Source of the DNA: a virus
Lineage: Duplodnaviria > Caudoviricetes
Virus record (IMG/VR): IMGVR_UViG_3300005612_000017
Span: 1 to 34,540 of that record
Length of the DNA: 34,540 nt
Reading direction: 5' to 3' (one strand)
Part shown: positions 3,181 through 34,540 of the stretch, in pieces
How positions within the stretch are numbered: position 1 is the stretch's first letter
How the letters are laid out: the number at the start of each line of letters is the position of its first letter
Notes under the pieces: model-generated
Told to the model about the DNA's origin: nothing
The model's input: only the letters and a program-made list of their open reading frames with translations
The model's database searches: none
Program-made: the position numbers and the translations under genes

Positions 3181-3840
3181 ATGCCAAACATAGAGCTATT
3201 CAATGAAGACTGCATGATTGTTATGTCGAGGTATCCAGATAACTATTTTGACTTAGCGTGTGTCGATCCGCCTTATGGGATAGGTGGGAGCGGAAAATCT
3301 AACAAATCGCGTAGTAAATTAGCTGTTGCGAAAGACTACAAGCCATTTTCAGGCGGTGATTTAGACCCACCATCCATAGCGTATTTTTCTGAGCTGCAGC
3401 GGGTGAGTAATAACCAAATTGTGTGGGGCGCCAACCACTTTGTGGACAGAATAGCAAAAGGTTCGCCGTGCTGGCTCGTTTGGGACAAGGAAAACGGGGG
3501 GTCAGATTTTGCTGACTGCGAGTTAGCATGGTCAAGTTTCGCGACCGCTGTCCGCATCTTCCGTTTTAGGTGGAATGGTATGTGGCAAGGAAACATGAAG
3601 AAAAAAGAGTGGCGTATTCACCCCACACAAAAACCCGTCAAACTCTACACCTGGCTTCTGACAAACTACGCCGAACCCGGCCAGCGCATCCTGGACACCC
3701 ACCTAGGCTCAGGATCTAGCGCGATAGCCGCCCACTACTTCGGCGCGGACTTCGTGGGCTGCGAGATCGACGAGGACTACTACCGGGCCGCCTGTGCCAG
3801 GTTCGACGCAGAGACCGCACAACAGGCGCTTGCCATCTAA
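3181..3840 (+). CDS. DNA N6-adenine/N4-cytosine methyltransferase (beta class)
   Basis: VDPPYG, IVWGAN, VWDK, HPTQKP, LDTHLGSGS, GCEIDEDY. Confidence 0.93.
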   Translation: MPNIELFNEDCMIVMSRYPDNYFDLACVDPPYGIGGSGKSNKSRSKLAVAKDYKPFSGGDLDPPSIAYFSELQRVSNNQIVWGANHFVDRIAKGSPCWLVWDKENGGSDFADCELAWSSFATAVRIFRFRWNGMWQGNMKKKEWRIHPTQKPVKLYTWLLTNYAEPGQRILDTHLGSGSSAIAAHYFGADFVGCEIDEDYYRAACARFDAETAQQALAI

Positions 3841-27675: not shown

Positions 27676-28986
27676 ATGACCGCATACGAAGCAATGGTCG
27701 AATTAGAGCGCAAGCGAGCGGAGCTTGATCACGCCCGCCGCGCACAGACGCCTGGCGCTCCGGAGTACGCGACTGGGGCAATCAACGAGCTTTGGCCCAC
27801 GCCTGCGCATTTTGTCTCCCAGCTTGGCATTCCCGGAGCGTCAGATGTTGCCGAGTACCAGGCGGCGCGTAGCGAGGGCCTAGGTGTTCTGCCTGCGCTG
27901 GGACTTGCCGCGCTACCCTTTGGTATCGGCTACGGCGTGAAGGGCGCTCTGAAGGCCGCAGAGCCCATGCTACGTGGTGGGCCTGAGCTTCCGGGCATCA
28001 ATCCGGAGATGGCCGCGTTACAAGCTGCACTGGGCGGCGATCCTGCCACGCAGACCAGCGCGCTGATGGGGGTGAAGCGCATACCTAAGCTATATCACAG
28101 CGCCCGTGGTGGGCCTGAAGCTATCGAGAGCATTAAGGAGAAAGGATTCACACGCGGGGTGAGTGCTGAAATAAAAACGCCTGGGACATCCTTATCTGAA
28201 GATCCCTACATGAGCGTTAAGTATTTTGCCCCCGGCTCTGCGGACCAGTTTTTTCCCGCAGACACACGTTCACACGAGGACCGCTATTCCACGGTAGCCG
28301 TCGAGCCGAAGGGGTTGCGGGCGCAGGATGTACACAACCTACCGCCGTCTGCCTATTTATCAGGCGACCTACCGAAAGACCCACAAGCTTTCTACCGCAA
28401 GCCAGGGGCTTTCTACCATGAGGCTGAGACATTCGCCCGCCGCGAGCCCGGAACGCTGGAGCACACGCCGCCGCCGCCGCCTGATGTTAGCGTTCGTGAC
28501 TTAACTGCGGAAGAATGGGCCAGGGTGAAAGGGACACAGCGTGCCAACCGACAGTTTGAAGGCGGCGCCAATAGCATCTTTGCTGCGGCGGCTGAGCTTC
28601 GCAGATTCGGCAATCTTCCGGGCAAGGCGGTAGTTGTTGATATGGCCGAGGGGCTAAGAAAGCTTCGCGGCGATAAGGCGACTTTTTCCCGAGCTATGGA
28701 TAGAGTCGCCGCTGGTCTTCGCTCCCTTGATATTTATGGCGATGACCCAGGGCAAGCGATACTACATCAAGTCTATGGTAAGACGAAAACCAGGACGATG
28801 CGAGCGGCAGCTTTCAAAATGGGAACCCTCATGGAGGCGATGAATAGCCGGGGTCTCGCTCCCGACGCGGTCGACAACAGCTACCGTCAATATATCGGCT
28901 TCCGTAACTACCTTTATGATGAGCTGCAAGCGGGGGCTGCTACAGGACGGAAGCCAAAGATGGTTGCGCCAGGGCGCTTGCCGTAA
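27676..28986 (+). CDS. Last virion-module protein with putative ADP-ribosyltransferase-like domain
   Basis: KLYH...SIKEKGF...GTSLSEDP..S..Y...YHEAETF; N-terminal hydrophobic segment. Confidence 0.5.
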   Translation: MTAYEAMVELERKRAELDHARRAQTPGAPEYATGAINELWPTPAHFVSQLGIPGASDVAEYQAARSEGLGVLPALGLAALPFGIGYGVKGALKAAEPMLRGGPELPGINPEMAALQAALGGDPATQTSALMGVKRIPKLYHSARGGPEAIESIKEKGFTRGVSAEIKTPGTSLSEDPYMSVKYFAPGSADQFFPADTRSHEDRYSTVAVEPKGLRAQDVHNLPPSAYLSGDLPKDPQAFYRKPGAFYHEAETFARREPGTLEHTPPPPPDVSVRDLTAEEWARVKGTQRANRQFEGGANSIFAAAAELRRFGNLPGKAVVVDMAEGLRKLRGDKATFSRAMDRVAAGLRSLDIYGDDPGQAILHQVYGKTKTRTMRAAAFKMGTLMEAMNSRGLAPDAVDNSYRQYIGFRNYLYDELQAGAATGRKPKMVAPGRLP

Positions 28987-28987
28987 C

Positions 28988-29040
28988 AAGCCTTCCCAGG
29001 ATGGGCGGGGAGCCAATAACGGCTCCCCCTGGGAAGGCTT
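28988..29040. terminator. Large nested hairpin between the convergent late and early units
   Basis: aagccttcccagg/cctgggaaggctt (13-bp inverted repeat) enclosing ggggagcc-aataac-ggctcccc. Confidence 0.7.
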
Positions 29041-29311
29041 AGTAGTTCTGGTTCCTGATAGCCCGAATCAACTCCCGATGCCGGCGTTCGGTATCCTTCC
29101 GGTTCCGCTCAATCTGGTTCCGTTCGCGGGCTTGGGCTTGGTCTTGCTCGACAAGATGTCCGAGGGAGAACTGGTTGCGCTGTTGTGGGCTGATACCACC
29201 AGCCCAATTAGCGTCATAGCCAGACCCGTAATAAACCGGTGCCGCCACGGACGGCAGTGATGCGAACGCGGCGATCAGCGCGGCGATAACAAGTGCTTTG
29301 TTTGTCTTCAT
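29039..29311 (-). CDS. Exported small protein with signal peptide
   Basis: MKTNKALVIAALIAAFASLPSVAA; gagga RBS. Confidence 0.7.
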   Translation of the reverse strand: MKTNKALVIAALIAAFASLPSVAAPVYYGSGYDANWAGGISPQQRNQFSLGHLVEQDQAQARERNQIERNRKDTERRHRELIRAIRNQNY

Positions 29312-29342
29312 GGTCTAATCCTCTAGTCAGGGTTGTTGGTGT

Positions 29343-29486
29343 TTAGCAGTTTTCCTGCAGGTGGCAGGTGTCGCACCCGTAGCGCGTGCGCTCCTTTGGC
29401 CCGAGTAGACGCTGGCTTCCGAAGCACGAGTAGACTTTCGTGGTCTTCGGCCACAGACGCTCAAGCAGGCTCTTTATCAGCTTCAT
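29343..29486 (-). CDS. 47-aa Cys-rich protein
   Basis: My translation: MKLIKSLLERLWPKTTKVYSCFGSQRLLGPKERTRYGCDTCHLQENC; ATGA overlap with the upstream gene. Confidence 0.55.
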   Translation of the reverse strand: MKLIKSLLERLWPKTTKVYSCFGSQRLLGPKERTRYGCDTCHLQENC

Positions 29487-29710
29487 GACAGCGCCGCCAC
29501 TGCGCCGACCAGTAAGTAGATCGGGGCAAAGAGCACTGCGCAGATTGTCGCTACCGTCGCCGTCGCACAGAGCGCCCCACAGGGCTGTGATGCCTTCCGC
29601 GGCTTCTCCAGGTAGTCCAGTGGCGGGCGGCTCCGAAGCTTGGCGGTGACGGTTGGGCGGAGCCTGGTGCCGTTGCCATGGAGGATTCGTGATTTTGTAT
29701 AGTCAGTCAT
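29483..29710 (-). CDS. Small membrane protein
   Basis: Hydrophobic C-terminus ATICAVLFAPIYLLVGAVAALS; overlaps neighbours. Confidence 0.55.
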   Translation of the reverse strand: MTDYTKSRILHGNGTRLRPTVTAKLRSRPPLDYLEKPRKASQPCGALCATATVATICAVLFAPIYLLVGAVAALS

Positions 29711-29924
29711 GATTATTTTCTTGGTCCTCTCTATGGAATCGGCATTGGTATGTTCCGAGCGGCAGCTTTCGCAGGACGGCCAGGAGCTTCTTCAGCATTT
29801 CCGCCTCCTCGTTGGAGATCCATGCGCGAAAATCCGTTTTTCCTGCCGCGCGCTGGCGTTTCTTGAATTCCCTTTGACGCTGCGCCCCGTCCTTGGGGCT
29901 GGTGTTGTCTGCTTTCATACCCAT
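29703..29924 (-). CDS. Small DNA-binding protein (RHH-like), candidate Aca regulator
   Basis: AQRQREFKKRQRAAG..DFRAWIS.EE..ML; directly downstream of acr-like genes. Confidence 0.55.
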   Translation of the reverse strand: MGMKADNTSPKDGAQRQREFKKRQRAAGKTDFRAWISNEEAEMLKKLLAVLRKLPLGTYQCRFHREDQENNHD

Positions 29925-29955
29925 TGTGTTATTGACTCCGGTTTGATGGCTTCCC

Positions 29956-30153
29956 TCACCGATCTGTCCATTTGTCGTCTTCTTTTACGCTCAGAACTGC
30001 CCCGTTCTCCGCCTCAATTTTCAGAACCGTCCTCCGGAACATCTGGTTCCGAGATGCGGCGCGTTTTGCCGCACTAAGGTTTTTGGCTTCGATGGACTGT
30101 CCGTCTCGGTGGCTTCGTGCGCTCGGTATTTCGCGGATAATGTAGGTTGACAT
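29956..30153 (-). CDS. acrIF9: Anti-CRISPR AcrIF9 homolog
   Basis: Colinear with AcrIF9 as I recall it: YII.E....S.R.G..IEA..LS.AKR.AS..Q.F..TV..IE..NG..L..KED..W. Confidence 0.85.
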   Translation of the reverse strand: MSTYIIREIPSARSHRDGQSIEAKNLSAAKRAASRNQMFRRTVLKIEAENGAVLSVKEDDKWTDR

Positions 30154-30183
30154 CGCGTCGCTGCTCCGGTTGGTTACTTGCGT

Positions 30184-30213
30184 TGCGCCCCGTCCTTGGG
30201 GCTTTTTGTTTTT
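30184..30213 (+). terminator. Antisense-oriented terminator-like hairpin; its 20-bp core is repeated at 29881-29900
   Basis: tgc-gcccc-gtcctt-ggggc-tttttgttttt. Confidence 0.5.
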
Positions 30214-30219
30214 CCTAAT

Positions 30220-30489
30220 TTATGCCGCTGCTGTTTTTGCCATGTTGTAGAGCGGGTGGCATGGGAGCAATCGGACGGTATCGCTTTCAAAGTAGTCCGT
30301 CATGATGTCGCTTCCATTTTCCACTTTCAGCGCGTTAACCATCTCGGCGGGGAATGCGCTCTTTTTGGGCTGGATTTTGATCAATTCGGGGTTGACACCT
30401 TCAATCCATGGCCCTGTCATGACCCGGATTCCGCAGCGCTTTTTGTTGATTGTCAAAGTTGCCCTTTGGCCTTTTCCGCTGATCTTCAT
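30220..30489 (-). CDS. Uncharacterised 89-aa protein, candidate anti-defence protein
   Basis: Lies between two acr homologs with a near-identical leader; motif VENGSDIMTDYFESD.V...P.HPLY. Confidence 0.75.
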   Translation of the reverse strand: MKISGKGQRATLTINKKRCGIRVMTGPWIEGVNPELIKIQPKKSAFPAEMVNALKVENGSDIMTDYFESDTVRLLPCHPLYNMAKTAAA

Positions 30490-30523
30490 TTGGTTTGCTC
30501 CGGTTGGTGTTTCTCTTAACTTG
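30487..30523 (-). repeat. 37-bp leader repeat, copy B
   Basis: caagttaagagaaacaccaaccggagcaaaccaaatg; 35/37 identical to 30762-30798. Confidence 0.9.
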
Positions 30524-30764
30524 CGCGCATTTCATCTGTTACGGCGACCACATTATTTACCGCGATCCATTCGTGGTCCCCTTCTGTCAGGGGTGCGCCG
30601 TCGCAATCCAGAAAACTGGACTCCCCGCCGGATTCTGCGACTCCGTAAACATCCGAGGCGAATTGGTAGCTGGTCCCGTCATCTTCTCCGTTCAGCTCAA
30701 ACCAGTATGTGGTACTCTCGTTTGCCCAATTATTGTCTTTGCTCATATAGGTTGCGGTGGTCAT
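30516..30764 (-). CDS. acrIF18: Anti-CRISPR AcrIF18-like acidic protein
   Basis: Y.SKD.NW....TTYWF..NGE...GV...G...DCDGAP...T..M.A matches AcrIF18 as I recall it; very acidic. Confidence 0.7.
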   Translation of the reverse strand: MTTATYMSKDNNWANESTTYWFELNGEDDGTSYQFASDVYGVAESGGESSFLDCDGAPLTEGDHEWIAVNNVVAVTDEMRAS

Positions 30765-30798
30765 CTGGCTTGCTCCGGTTGGTGTTTCTCTTAACTTG
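30762..30798 (-). repeat. 37-bp leader repeat, copy A (predicted transcription start to ATG)
   Basis: caagttaagagaaacaccaaccggagcaagccagatg. Confidence 0.9.
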
Positions 30799-30804
30799 GA
30801 TACT

Positions 30805-30832
30805 ATTATACAGTGTTACGCGTAACAGTCAA
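30805..30832 (-). promoter_or_regulatory. Near-consensus sigma70 promoter of the acr operon
   Basis: TTGACT-16 nt-TATAAT on the minus strand. Confidence 0.8.
30814..30827. promoter_or_regulatory. Perfect 14-bp palindromic operator in the promoter spacer
   Basis: TGTTACGCGTAACA. Confidence 0.75.
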
Positions 30833-30835
30833 GCT

Positions 30836-31027
30836 TTATCTTGCCTCCAAGCTCCGGTTGTTCCACAAGTCCATTGCCATTGCTAGCGTGATTTCCACTT
30901 GCCGATTATCTTTCGGTTGCGGCGAGGGGCCAAAAACCCCGCATTGCAGGCATTCTGCATACGGCTCGATTCGGTTCGGTTCGCGTAGCCGATTACTGGC
31001 GCAAAACGGGCAAGGTTTGAGTTTCAT
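30836..31027 (-). CDS. Lar-family restriction alleviation protein
   Basis: LKPCPFCA...CLQCG...AMDLWNNR. Confidence 0.8.
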   Translation of the reverse strand: MKLKPCPFCASNRLREPNRIEPYAECLQCGVFGPSPQPKDNRQVEITLAMAMDLWNNRSLEAR

Positions 31028-31029
31028 TG

Positions 31030-32064
31030 CTAGCTTGCCATCGCCACCATTTCCCTCAGCTCCTTCGTCTGATCGTCCGGCAGGGCTGCTTCGGCGATCA
31101 AGTCGCTAAGCACGCCTAACGCCTCCTCGTCGGCGGCTGCGCGGATTTCATCGGCGAATTCAGCGAAGGACTTAGGCTCTGGCGTAGATGCCACCGACTC
31201 CGGCTCGATGACTTCCTCGTGGCTCCCCCGGCGCTTGCGGAATCTACCCGCTTGGGTGACGGACGGTCGGTCGTTTTCATAGCTCCAGCCGTGCTGCTGA
31301 GCGTCGAATTCAGAGCCGTCAACATCGCGCCAGGTCTCGGAATGTCCGCTCCCATTCCATCTGGGCCACTCGCTATTCTCTTTGGCGTCCTCCGCCGGCT
31401 CCTGCGCGTCTTGCTCATGGGAGGGTCGGCTGTCCGCCTCTCCGAGGGCCTTGGCCTTGGTCATGATCGAGGCCGCGCCCCGGGAGGGTGCTTCCTGCTC
31501 GATGACGGTGGCATTTTCATAGATAAAATGGGCGTCATCCTCGTCGCTGATACCCGAGAACCCAAAGGCGTAGCGGATTCCTTCCTTCGCAGTCTTGTGG
31601 CGTAGCATTCTCCTGGTGTGCTGCTTCCACGGCTCGGTGGCTCGGAAGCACTCTTCTAGATATTCCGTGATCACAATCGGGTGTGATCGGTCTTTGCGAT
31701 AGATTGTGCAGGTGCACGACTCAAGCTTTCCGTCCGAGTCGTTACCGTACTCGAAACTCATTCCATCAAATTCCGGGCGTCTTTGGGCGAGATTCAGAAA
31801 GCCGTCGATTCCGACCGTGGGGGTAATGCCACCACCTCGTCCAGGAAAGGCGTGGATCTCCCGAGTAATCGGGTTCAACTGGTATTGCTCCGCTACCATC
31901 AGGAATGCGGCGAGTTGTTCATTAGTCGACTTCCCGCCGGGCATCACAGTCGCCTTGATGGTATCGGCAAAGGCTGTGGGTTCCATGTCGAAACGATTGG
32001 CCATCTTCGCCAGCAGGGACTTTTTTGCCGGGACTTGCTGTAAATCTTTGACTTCGTTACTCAT
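31030..32064 (-). CDS. bet: Single-strand annealing recombinase (lambda Bet/RecT family)
   Basis: FLMVAEQYQLNPITREIHAFP, VGIDGF, CTIYRKDRSHP, PWKQHTRRMLRHK, AFGFSGI.DEDDA. Confidence 0.9.
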   Translation of the reverse strand: MSNEVKDLQQVPAKKSLLAKMANRFDMEPTAFADTIKATVMPGGKSTNEQLAAFLMVAEQYQLNPITREIHAFPGRGGGITPTVGIDGFLNLAQRRPEFDGMSFEYGNDSDGKLESCTCTIYRKDRSHPIVITEYLEECFRATEPWKQHTRRMLRHKTAKEGIRYAFGFSGISDEDDAHFIYENATVIEQEAPSRGAASIMTKAKALGEADSRPSHEQDAQEPAEDAKENSEWPRWNGSGHSETWRDVDGSEFDAQQHGWSYENDRPSVTQAGRFRKRRGSHEEVIEPESVASTPEPKSFAEFADEIRAAADEEALGVLSDLIAEAALPDDQTKELREMVAMAS

Positions 32065-33898: not shown

Positions 33899-34062
33899 GA
33901 CAGCAGCGCGTTTAAAACAGCTAGGACCCAGAAGGTCCCGCAACCCAGGACGATAGTTAGAGCCAGATAAAACAGAGAGCCTATAAACTCTGCCAGCCCA
34001 CTAATCGGGGGTCTTGGGTGCATCCCAGTCGCCTGGTAATCTCTAATTATTGCTTTGCTCAT
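33895..34062 (-). CDS. 55-aa membrane protein
   Basis: My translation: MSKAIIRDYQATGMHPRPPISGLAEFIGSLFYLALTIVLGCGTFWVLAVLNALLS; ATGA overlaps at both ends. Confidence 0.6.
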   Translation of the reverse strand: MSKAIIRDYQATGMHPRPPISGLAEFIGSLFYLALTIVLGCGTFWVLAVLNALLS

Positions 34063-34304
34063 GACGGATCAGCCTCCTCATATTTGACGATGCAGTAGAT
34101 CGCGAGGCTGTAAGCGTCGGATAGCTGGCGCAGCGCCTTCCGGGCCTCGGCAGGGCGCAGATCGTCCGTGCGGCTAAAGAGTTCTGCTACGGTGCAGCTA
34201 AGCATGAGTTCCTCCTGCTCGTCGCATGCCATCTCCAGGCGCTGATGTTCATCCACCTCGCGCTGATACTCGGCGAGTCCGGGGTGATCTGGTAATTTAT
34301 TCAT
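34059..34304 (-). CDS. Hypothetical 81-aa protein
   Basis: MNKLPDHPGLAEY...; gagg RBS; the Ala/Thr extension in the ORF track is an off-frame reading of the repeat. Confidence 0.6.
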   Translation of the reverse strand: MNKLPDHPGLAEYQREVDEHQRLEMACDEQEELMLSCTVAELFSRTDDLRPAEARKALRQLSDAYSLAIYCIVKYEEADPS

Positions 34305-34540
34305 TTGACGCCTCATGTGGTAGGTCGGCGCTGCCGTAGCCGCTGCCGCTGCCGTAGCCTCTGCCGCTGCCGTTGCCGCTGCCGTTGCCGATGCCGTAGC
34401 CGTAGCCGTAGCCGCTGCCGTAGCCGTCGCCATCGTAGCCGCCGCTGCCGTCGCCGCTGCCGTAGCCGCTGCCATCGTAGCCGCCGCTGCCGCCGTAGCC
34501 GTAGCTGCCGCTGCCGGCGCTGCCGCCGCTGCCGTAGCCG
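34297..34540 (-). CDS. Gly-X (GYGSGDG) repeat protein, C-terminal part (truncated by window edge)
   Basis: GGC alternating with TAC/AGC/GAC/AAC, ending GYGSADLPHEASNE*. Confidence 0.7.
   Translation of the reverse strand, partial: GYGSGGSAGSGSYGYGGSGGYDGSGYGSGDGSGGYDGDGYGSGYGYGYGIGNGSGNGSGRGYGSGSGYGSADLPHEASNE

Follow-up and report, generated by a model that had tools for sequence, protein, structure and literature searches.

The locus studied here raises the question of whether an 89-residue protein, encoded between two homologs of type I-F anti-CRISPR (Acr) proteins, itself counters host defence and, if so, which host component it would bind. The gene lies in a window of 34,540 bases, the whole of a virus record that is estimated to be 91% complete. 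The plus strand of this window carries the terminase, portal, head and ejection genes, and the minus strand includes a block of exonuclease VIII, Bet/RecT and HNH genes. Acr cassettes contain many unnamed genes, and in the papers cited below the LPD domains of polyvalent proteins are largely without a tested function.

The target gene and its cassette

The open reading frame proposed in the initial annotation proved to be real (Table 1). In comparisons with five homologous loci, 26 to 34 of its 89 codons differed synonymously, while 25 to 28 were identical, and it is therefore the protein sequence that is conserved. The product is basic (pI 9.47, charge +4.6 at pH 7; median pI of 150 homologs, 8.9), and it had no match in Pfam (E up to 0.1) or NCBIfam. 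The two conspicuous elements of its sequence are ENGSDIMTDYFESD, which spans residues 57-70, and HPLY, at residues 78-81. Compared with the consensus of 150 aligned family sequences, the target deviates at G59 (5%) and C77. The sequencing runs containing the gene are marine sediment and marine metagenomes, and there was no RNA run among the 14 runs listed as containing it.

The gene is part of a minus-strand cassette in which a Lar-like gene, a promoter-like site, an AcrIF18-like gene, the target, a GC-rich hairpin, an AcrIF9 homolog and a 73-residue regulator-like gene follow each other in this order. The earlier statement that two Acr homologs flank the target was thus borne out: all five phmmer matches of the downstream gene were AcrIF9, and the upstream gene agrees by eye with AcrIF18* (PMC7648647, supplementary file 10) at about 30-33 of 69 positions, while a PDB search with it returned no Acr match. 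A leader shared with both flanking genes had also been reported. This holds for the acrIF18-like gene, whose leader is 95% identical to that of the target over 38 nt, whereas the match with the acrIF9 leader is confined to a 13-nt core. This core occurs three times in the window, against 0.07 copies expected, and three copies were reached in none of 100 shuffles. An Rfam search of positions 28900-31100 gave no match.

Table 1. Features of the cassette, in positions of the window
Feature	Position	Strand	Basis
Restriction alleviation gene (Lar-like), upstream of the promoter	30836..31027	minus	PF14354, 38.5 bits (cut-off 28.6)
Sigma-70-type promoter-like site	30805..30832	minus	11 of 12 consensus matches (consensus match alone)
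Perfect 14-bp palindrome inside the promoter, candidate operator	30814..30827	.	occurs once in the window
Leader of the acrIF18-like gene, repeat family D1	30761..30798	minus	
AcrIF18-like gene, 82 aa, first behind the promoter	30516..30764	minus	ORF, by-eye AcrIF18* comparison
Leader of the target gene, repeat family D1	30486..30523	minus	
Target gene, 89 aa, ATG start, stand-alone form of an unnamed domain (PHROG 18160/18717)	30220..30489	minus	ORF
Codons N58-D70, motif N-x-S-D-x-x-T-D-Y-F-x-x-D, predicted hairpin with D61-Y66 bridge	30280..30318	minus	alignment, DSSP on model
GC-rich hairpin between target and acrIF9, T-run on the plus strand, opposite to the genes	30187..30202	.	
13-nt leader core before acrIF9	30162..30174	minus	
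AcrIF9 homolog, 65 aa, downstream of the target	29956..30153	minus	phmmer E 2.1e-14 to PDB 6w1x
Regulator-like gene, 73 aa, in aca position	29703..29924	minus	phrog_536 E 2.8e-5; UrfF E 3.1e-7, far below the UrfF cut-off

The terminal gene of the cassette, which we take to be of the ribbon-helix-helix (RHH) type, had no match in the PDB, and thus matches no named Aca there. Together with the palindrome in the promoter, it is a possible candidate for a new Aca/operator pair; an RHH-type Aca, Aca14, is described in PMC13551039. The GC-rich hairpin between the target and acrIF9 was considered as an operon terminator, but this reading was dropped because the genes and the T-run of the hairpin are on opposite strands. 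Taken over 23 nt (30181-30203), this hairpin has a 96% copy at 29878-29900, inside the start of the regulator-like ORF, and the two copies may represent a duplication scar or a regulatory site.

Evidence for the modular nature of the cassette was obtained from sequencing reads, which were aligned to the window at 85% likeness; what is seen is therefore a related phage and not a deletion within one strain. In a 647-nt contig from run X7, position 30157 was joined to 30854, and the shorter arm of the joint covers 153 letters. Promoter, acrIF18-like gene and target were missing from this contig as one block. Another contig skips positions 29918-30771, and run X7 also contains pieces that match the form seen in the window. 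The joints lie near the leader copies. A further joint, 30162-30851 in run X5, was too weak to count, with a depth of 2.4 and a shorter arm of 30 letters.

Several other genes in the window deserve mention. A plus-strand gene of 436 residues (27676-28986), located 3' of the ejection genes and without Pfam or PHROG match, possibly encodes an injected protein. Beyond the regulator-like gene, three short minus-strand ORFs of 75, 47 and 90 residues (29039-29710) lack a convincing family match, and the start of the 90-residue ORF resembles a signal peptide. The ORF at 34059-34475 has a long Ala/Thr low-complexity N-terminus, and its true start may be further in. Two DNA methyltransferase genes (1068-1688 and 3181-3840) fit a phage that invests in restriction avoidance.

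The target belongs to a widespread domain family

A search with the target sequence alone yielded nine proteins. Profile searches yielded 271 homologs among 526 candidates and, in a set of 1.84 billion sequences, 264 representatives (50% identity) at E up to 0.001. PHROG 18160/18717, annotated as having unknown function, represent the same domain. The target matches them weakly, over its C-terminal half (E 4e-6 and 1.2e-5), whereas relatives such as the family protein of locus L067 (P0240, E 2e-28) match them strongly. Where family proteins have been given names, these are 'hypothetical' or 'uncharacterized'.

Conservation was assessed in an alignment of 150 sequences, picked from 270 for a length near that of the domain. 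The most conserved residues were N58 (98%), D61 (92%), D65 (99%), Y66 (95%), F67 (95%) and D70 (95%), H78 was conserved in at least 90% of the sequences, and R73 in 79%. Some family proteins consist of the domain alone, and in others it is part of a polyvalent fusion protein. Fusions with LPD25 scored above the cut-off in four of 18 proteins in one scan, and additionally in protein P0252; these may represent a single event, because the tree places them in one branch. Moreover, the domain was found inside three proteins of 1032-1393 residues. The family ORF exceeded 150 residues at 30 of 89 loci (heuristic gene calls), a count that includes LPD25 fusions and these three proteins. The target itself falls in a short stand-alone branch of a quick tree, which comprises 22 of the 89 loci. 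Members of the family are present in genomes of Alphaproteobacteria, Bacillota and Bacteroidota, in Leptospira plasmids, and in Xylella and Shewanella phages; those in bacterial genomes probably sit in prophages. LPDs have been described as domains of polyvalent proteins that possibly act early in invasion (Iyer et al., PMC5512222).

Neighbourhoods of the family genes

A family ORF was found in 253 of 282 fetched loci (heuristic gene calls). Dereplication (85% identity, at least 500 nt of flank) left 91 loci, or 89 once two members of a second family were removed. The neighbourhood analysis proposed in the initial annotation gave a mixed answer. A named acr or aca1 neighbour was detected at three of the 89 loci, namely the window phage (L001), L067 and L054, and none was seen at the other 86. 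This count is a floor, because Pfam missed both the AcrIF9 homolog and aca1; the neighbour scans with Pfam covered 117 proteins (a selection out of 171 listed ones, plus a few others) and 150 proteins (largely drawn from 220 listed ones). At L067, an aca1 homolog lies directly downstream of the family gene (E 5e-21). At L054 (4587-6445), the family fusion is followed by five co-oriented ORFs, the last of which encodes a 189-residue protein with a C-terminal Aca1 domain (E 2e-15). L054 and L067 share one branch of the quick tree, and L001 and L067 never formed one clade in 200 bootstrap trees.

A conserved partner gene did not emerge, as no neighbour family was present in more than four of the 91 loci. 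Small DNA-binding genes were found downstream at 5 of 89 loci and upstream at 1 of 55, a difference that was not significant (Fisher p 0.41), and the closest relatives of the target (L031, L034, L095) had no recognised anti-defence neighbour. Other neighbours included genes for DUF3560, DUF4942, DUF932, DUF4121 and SprT-like proteins as well as small HTH or RHH genes, a set of genes typically seen in anti-defence regions. When the search was reversed and started from the acrIF9 homolog or the L067 aca1, two loci were returned for each, too few to judge. One locus from these searches, L286, contained no family gene.

Some of these loci merit separate note. At L286 (1578-2716), a 284-residue gene that looks DUF932-like by eye lies directly upstream of an aca1 homolog, and at L139 a DUF932 gene is located two genes upstream of the family gene. 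L067 carries an 85-residue ORF (2516-2773) without Pfam or PHROG match, upstream of the family gene and aca1 and with a similar leader, which makes it an Acr candidate. At L004, L005, L009 and L037, short cassettes, in which the family gene is accompanied by a single small ORF and an HTH gene, run against terminase or NusG-like genes.

The motif recurs in unrelated families

The initial annotation had singled out ENGSDIMTDYFESD...HPLY as a distinctive motif. It is indeed present and distinctive, but its core is not specific to the target family: N-x-S-D-x-M-T-D-Y-F also occurs in phrog_10415, in LPD29 and in another unnamed family. Scanning viral contigs for N-x-[ST]-D-x-M-T-D-Y-F gave at least 120 stretches, with an estimated total of about 350, whereas the motif was absent when 1.2 million residues were shuffled five times. 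When the motif was masked in 119 viral carriers, 51 scored with the target family (family 1), 52 with phrog_10415 (family 2) and 16 with neither, and cross-scores between families 1 and 2 were at most 2.6 bits. Clustering of the masked carriers gave groups of 52, 51, 5, 4 and 2, plus five singles, one of which (L342) looks like a chance motif. The LPD29 cut-off was passed by three of ten scanned carriers (L320, L337 and L353), all belonging to the group of five. The group of four (L297, L303, L317 and L325; motif at 901-930) constitutes the unnamed family, with a different sequence frame and no Pfam match at the motif.

The profiles of families 1 and 2 align over 27 columns only, covering the motif and the helix that precedes it (probability 93.8), and these columns could be one inherited piece instead of a product of convergence. 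In family 2 (96 sequences) the core reads SDIMTDYF, and its S, D, D, Y and F are 97-100% conserved. One of the 96 members matches LPD29 at E 0.09, and LPD29 carriers match phrog_10415 around the motif. Since family 2 and LPD29 may therefore be distant relatives, the number of independent scaffolds is three or four. Asp-x-x-Thr-Asp is an ordinary hairpin-turn pattern, so part of the motif's conservation may be structural. In addition, three motif carriers weakly match phrog_1926 ('released from the phage upon host infection'), at E 4e-6 to 0.013.

The family and the shared motif were not found in the literature searched, although the supplements of PMC7913775 and PMC5512222 may record them; PMC7913775 reports 27 tested aca-associated candidates. 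Text searches for MTDYFE, and for TDYFE together with HPLY, gave no match, and TDYF with phage gave nothing relevant by title or start of abstract. A text search, without alignment, of the PMC7648647 supplements (AcrIE8 and AcrIF15-22; files 3 and 13 excepted) found TDYF 0 times and HPLY in one unrelated match. The motif text was likewise absent from the supplements of PMC10810201 and PMC13551039, and from those of PMC7391736 (one file excepted), which may list no sequences.

Predicted structures

The AlphaFold2 model of the target (pLDDT 89.9, pTM 0.73) has a beta-rich N-terminal half and a helix at residues 48-53, followed by the loop 57-70, a strand and a C-terminal helix. Within the loop, bridges are placed at about residues 57, 61 and 66. 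The motif is presumably exposed, a statement that we qualify because only the secondary-structure string of the model was inspected. For family 2, the model (pLDDT 90.2) has an alpha/beta scaffold, on which the Asp-to-Tyr bridge recurs with a loop of four residues. Taken together, the two AlphaFold models predict one and the same hairpin for the motif, although the scaffolds differ.

Fold searches with the target model gave weak matches, which by themselves do not make the modelled fold a new one: the best Foldseek match in the PDB had E 0.41; VIA-align against 48,161 chains reached at best Z 3.8 (rmsd 3.4, 67 aligned), with none at Z 5 or more; and BFVD returned only an uncharacterised phage protein, A0A6J5MXR6 (E 7.4e-3, TM 0.65). 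For the family 2 model, the best Foldseek match had E 0.52, and the best VIA match was KhpB (Z 5.5, rmsd 3.3, 77 aligned), which is within the range of common arrangements. A feature-based search of the ESM Atlas gave no usable match for P0001 or P0149, the Atlas model of P0001 being poor (pLDDT 0.44).

Discussion

We infer a role in counter-defence from the contexts of the family, namely the AcrIF9 homolog and the AcrIF18-like and Lar-like genes in the cassette, the aca1 loci and the polyvalent fusions. The target can thus be regarded as a real, unnamed candidate for counter-defence in an acr cassette, and such an association alone is ordinary. What is new, at the level of sequence, is that the motif is not family-specific and links the target family to phrog_10415, LPD29 and another unnamed family. 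Of the original assignment as an anti-CRISPR or anti-defence protein, the broader part was strengthened by the aca1 genes at L067 and L054 and by the polyvalent fusions, while the specifically anti-CRISPR part is now less supported. The likelihoods that we attach to the explanations below are judgements and were not computed.

We tentatively favour a small, basic early protein that would block a widely shared, DNA-handling defence protein other than Cas, through a hairpin held in a conserved pocket. The target would probably be expressed early from the promoter of the anti-CRISPR cassette and would present the predicted acidic-aromatic hairpin N58-D70. This hairpin would insert into the conserved pocket of a DNA-handling defence protein, presumably by one-to-one binding instead of catalysis, and the bound partner would probably be a non-Cas protein. 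A short motif that is near-invariant while its scaffold changes suggests a binding element for one conserved partner, and its presence in several unrelated phage families suggests that the protein acts against a single host component common to many bacteria, perhaps part of a non-CRISPR defence system. Host breadth, basic charge and scarce acr neighbours weigh against a Cas-specific target, while leaving room for Cas.

A true type I anti-CRISPR (I-F, I-E or I-C), with the hairpin bound to a functionally constrained surface by which Cascade or Cas3 handles DNA or the PAM, appears somewhat unlikely to us. The position of the target between two type I-F Acr homologs behind one promoter, its joint absence with the acrIF18-like gene in a related phage, and the family gene directly upstream of aca1 at L067 argue for it. 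However, named acr or aca1 neighbours are present at only three of 89 loci, albeit with weak detection, and the motif is near-invariant over distant phyla and scaffolds, whereas Cas surfaces diverge. Broad cross-subtype Acrs do exist: according to PMC7648647, AcrIF18* blocks both I-F and I-E, and constrained DNA-recognition surfaces are proposed there as broad Acr targets. On the other hand, the DNA mimics discussed in that study have a low pI, as opposed to 9.5 for the target and a family median of 8.9, and non-Acr anti-defence genes also occupy aca operons (PMC13551039). Alternatively, the motif could serve host takeover by binding conserved housekeeping machinery, for example the replication clamp or RNA polymerase, and an early need for the protein would be the sole reason for the gene's place in the cassette. 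A universal target would account for a motif that is kept across phyla, [MQ]-[TS]-D-Y-F loosely resembles the clamp-binding consensus QL[S/D]LF (PMC3716654), and the N-terminal part of the fusion P0194 weakly matches the processivity factor phrog_947 (E 1.1e-5; its best match is phrog_3007). Yet three of the five consensus positions differ in the target, and in the family the first is M in 45%, R in 27% and Q in 13%; moreover, the motif is modelled as a closed hairpin, and the gene occurs in bacterial genomes, probably as part of prophages, and here among anti-defence genes. We consider host takeover unlikely. A predicted complex of the target (alignment A2) with the Escherichia coli beta clamp scored 0.01 against a mark of 0.32, and, as the controls were not folded, this weighs neither way.

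It seems improbable that the conserved N, D, D, D, R and H constitute a small catalytic or ligand site for a metal, a nucleotide or an immune signal, in a protein acting alone or as an oligomer. This idea draws on the high conservation of N58, D61, D65, D70 and H78 (each at least 90%) and R73, and on the interpretation by Iyer et al. of polar patterns in other LPDs as possibly enzymatic (PMC5512222). However, family 2 lacks conserved equivalents of D70, R73 and H78, so an active site common to both families would rest on the short motif alone. Least probable of all, and very doubtful in our view, is mobile cargo of a function unrelated to defence, captured behind a duplicated leader: the modular cassette with its joints near leader copies fits it, as do the many family loci without recognisable anti-defence neighbours, but three separate acr/aca1 contexts, the polyvalent fusions and the presence of LPD29 in aca4 operons agree in pointing elsewhere.

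Beyond the target itself, N-x-S-D-x-M-T-D-Y-F could be a portable counter-defence hairpin, carried on at least four unrelated scaffolds including LPD29 and plugging one cross-phylum pocket, a proposal that we hold to be possible but doubtful. If it is true, the partner of the 89-residue protein would give a function to all families with the motif. In the target, the motif is seen in a minimal protein that stands alone, and the same motif connects an acr cassette with aca1 loci, with LPD29 and with two more phage families. The sharing of the motif with LPD29 and others raises its value, because one experiment could test several unassigned phage families. Should Cascade be the partner, the target would represent a new and very widespread Acr; if it is not, a conserved weak point would be attacked by phages in many phyla.

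Comparison with known systems

The target fits the gene context of anti-CRISPRs in being small, in belonging to a virus record, in having an AcrIF9 homolog next to it and in sharing a leader. In agreement with the initial annotation, it matched no named Acr within the searches run. AcrIF9 and AcrIF18* are its immediate neighbours and similar in size, and no sequence similarity between them and the target was found; AcrIF9 chains were matched neither by the target nor by its profile at E up to 10, whereas the neighbouring gene matched them at 2e-14. Acidic DNA-mimic Acrs have a low pI and a negative charge, unlike the basic target. The clamp-binding consensus QL[S/D]LF (PMC3716654) agrees with MTDYF of the target at two of five positions.

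Among the other carriers of the motif, phrog_10415 shares the core and the predicted bridge with the target and differs by its alpha/beta scaffold and the lack of an HPLY helix. The LPD29 (PF18847) members L320, L337 and L353 have the same N-x-S-D-x-M-T-D-Y-F motif as the target family, but the target and LPD29 show no profile match, LPD29 had no match among 50 distant relatives of the target, and the groups do not cluster together once the motif is masked. LPD29 has no tested function in the papers cited here. Four LPD29 genes have been reported in aca4 operons, and aca operons also contain non-Acr anti-defence genes (both PMC13551039).

The cassette as a whole differs from known acr-aca operons in that the target matches no named Acr in the libraries searched and its regulator-like gene matches no named Aca in the PDB. 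Nevertheless, it resembles such operons and anti-defence clusters (PMC7648647; PMC13551039) in its strong promoter-like site with a palindrome, its short genes behind shared leaders, its named Acr homologs, its small terminal regulator-like gene and the anti-restriction gene nearby.
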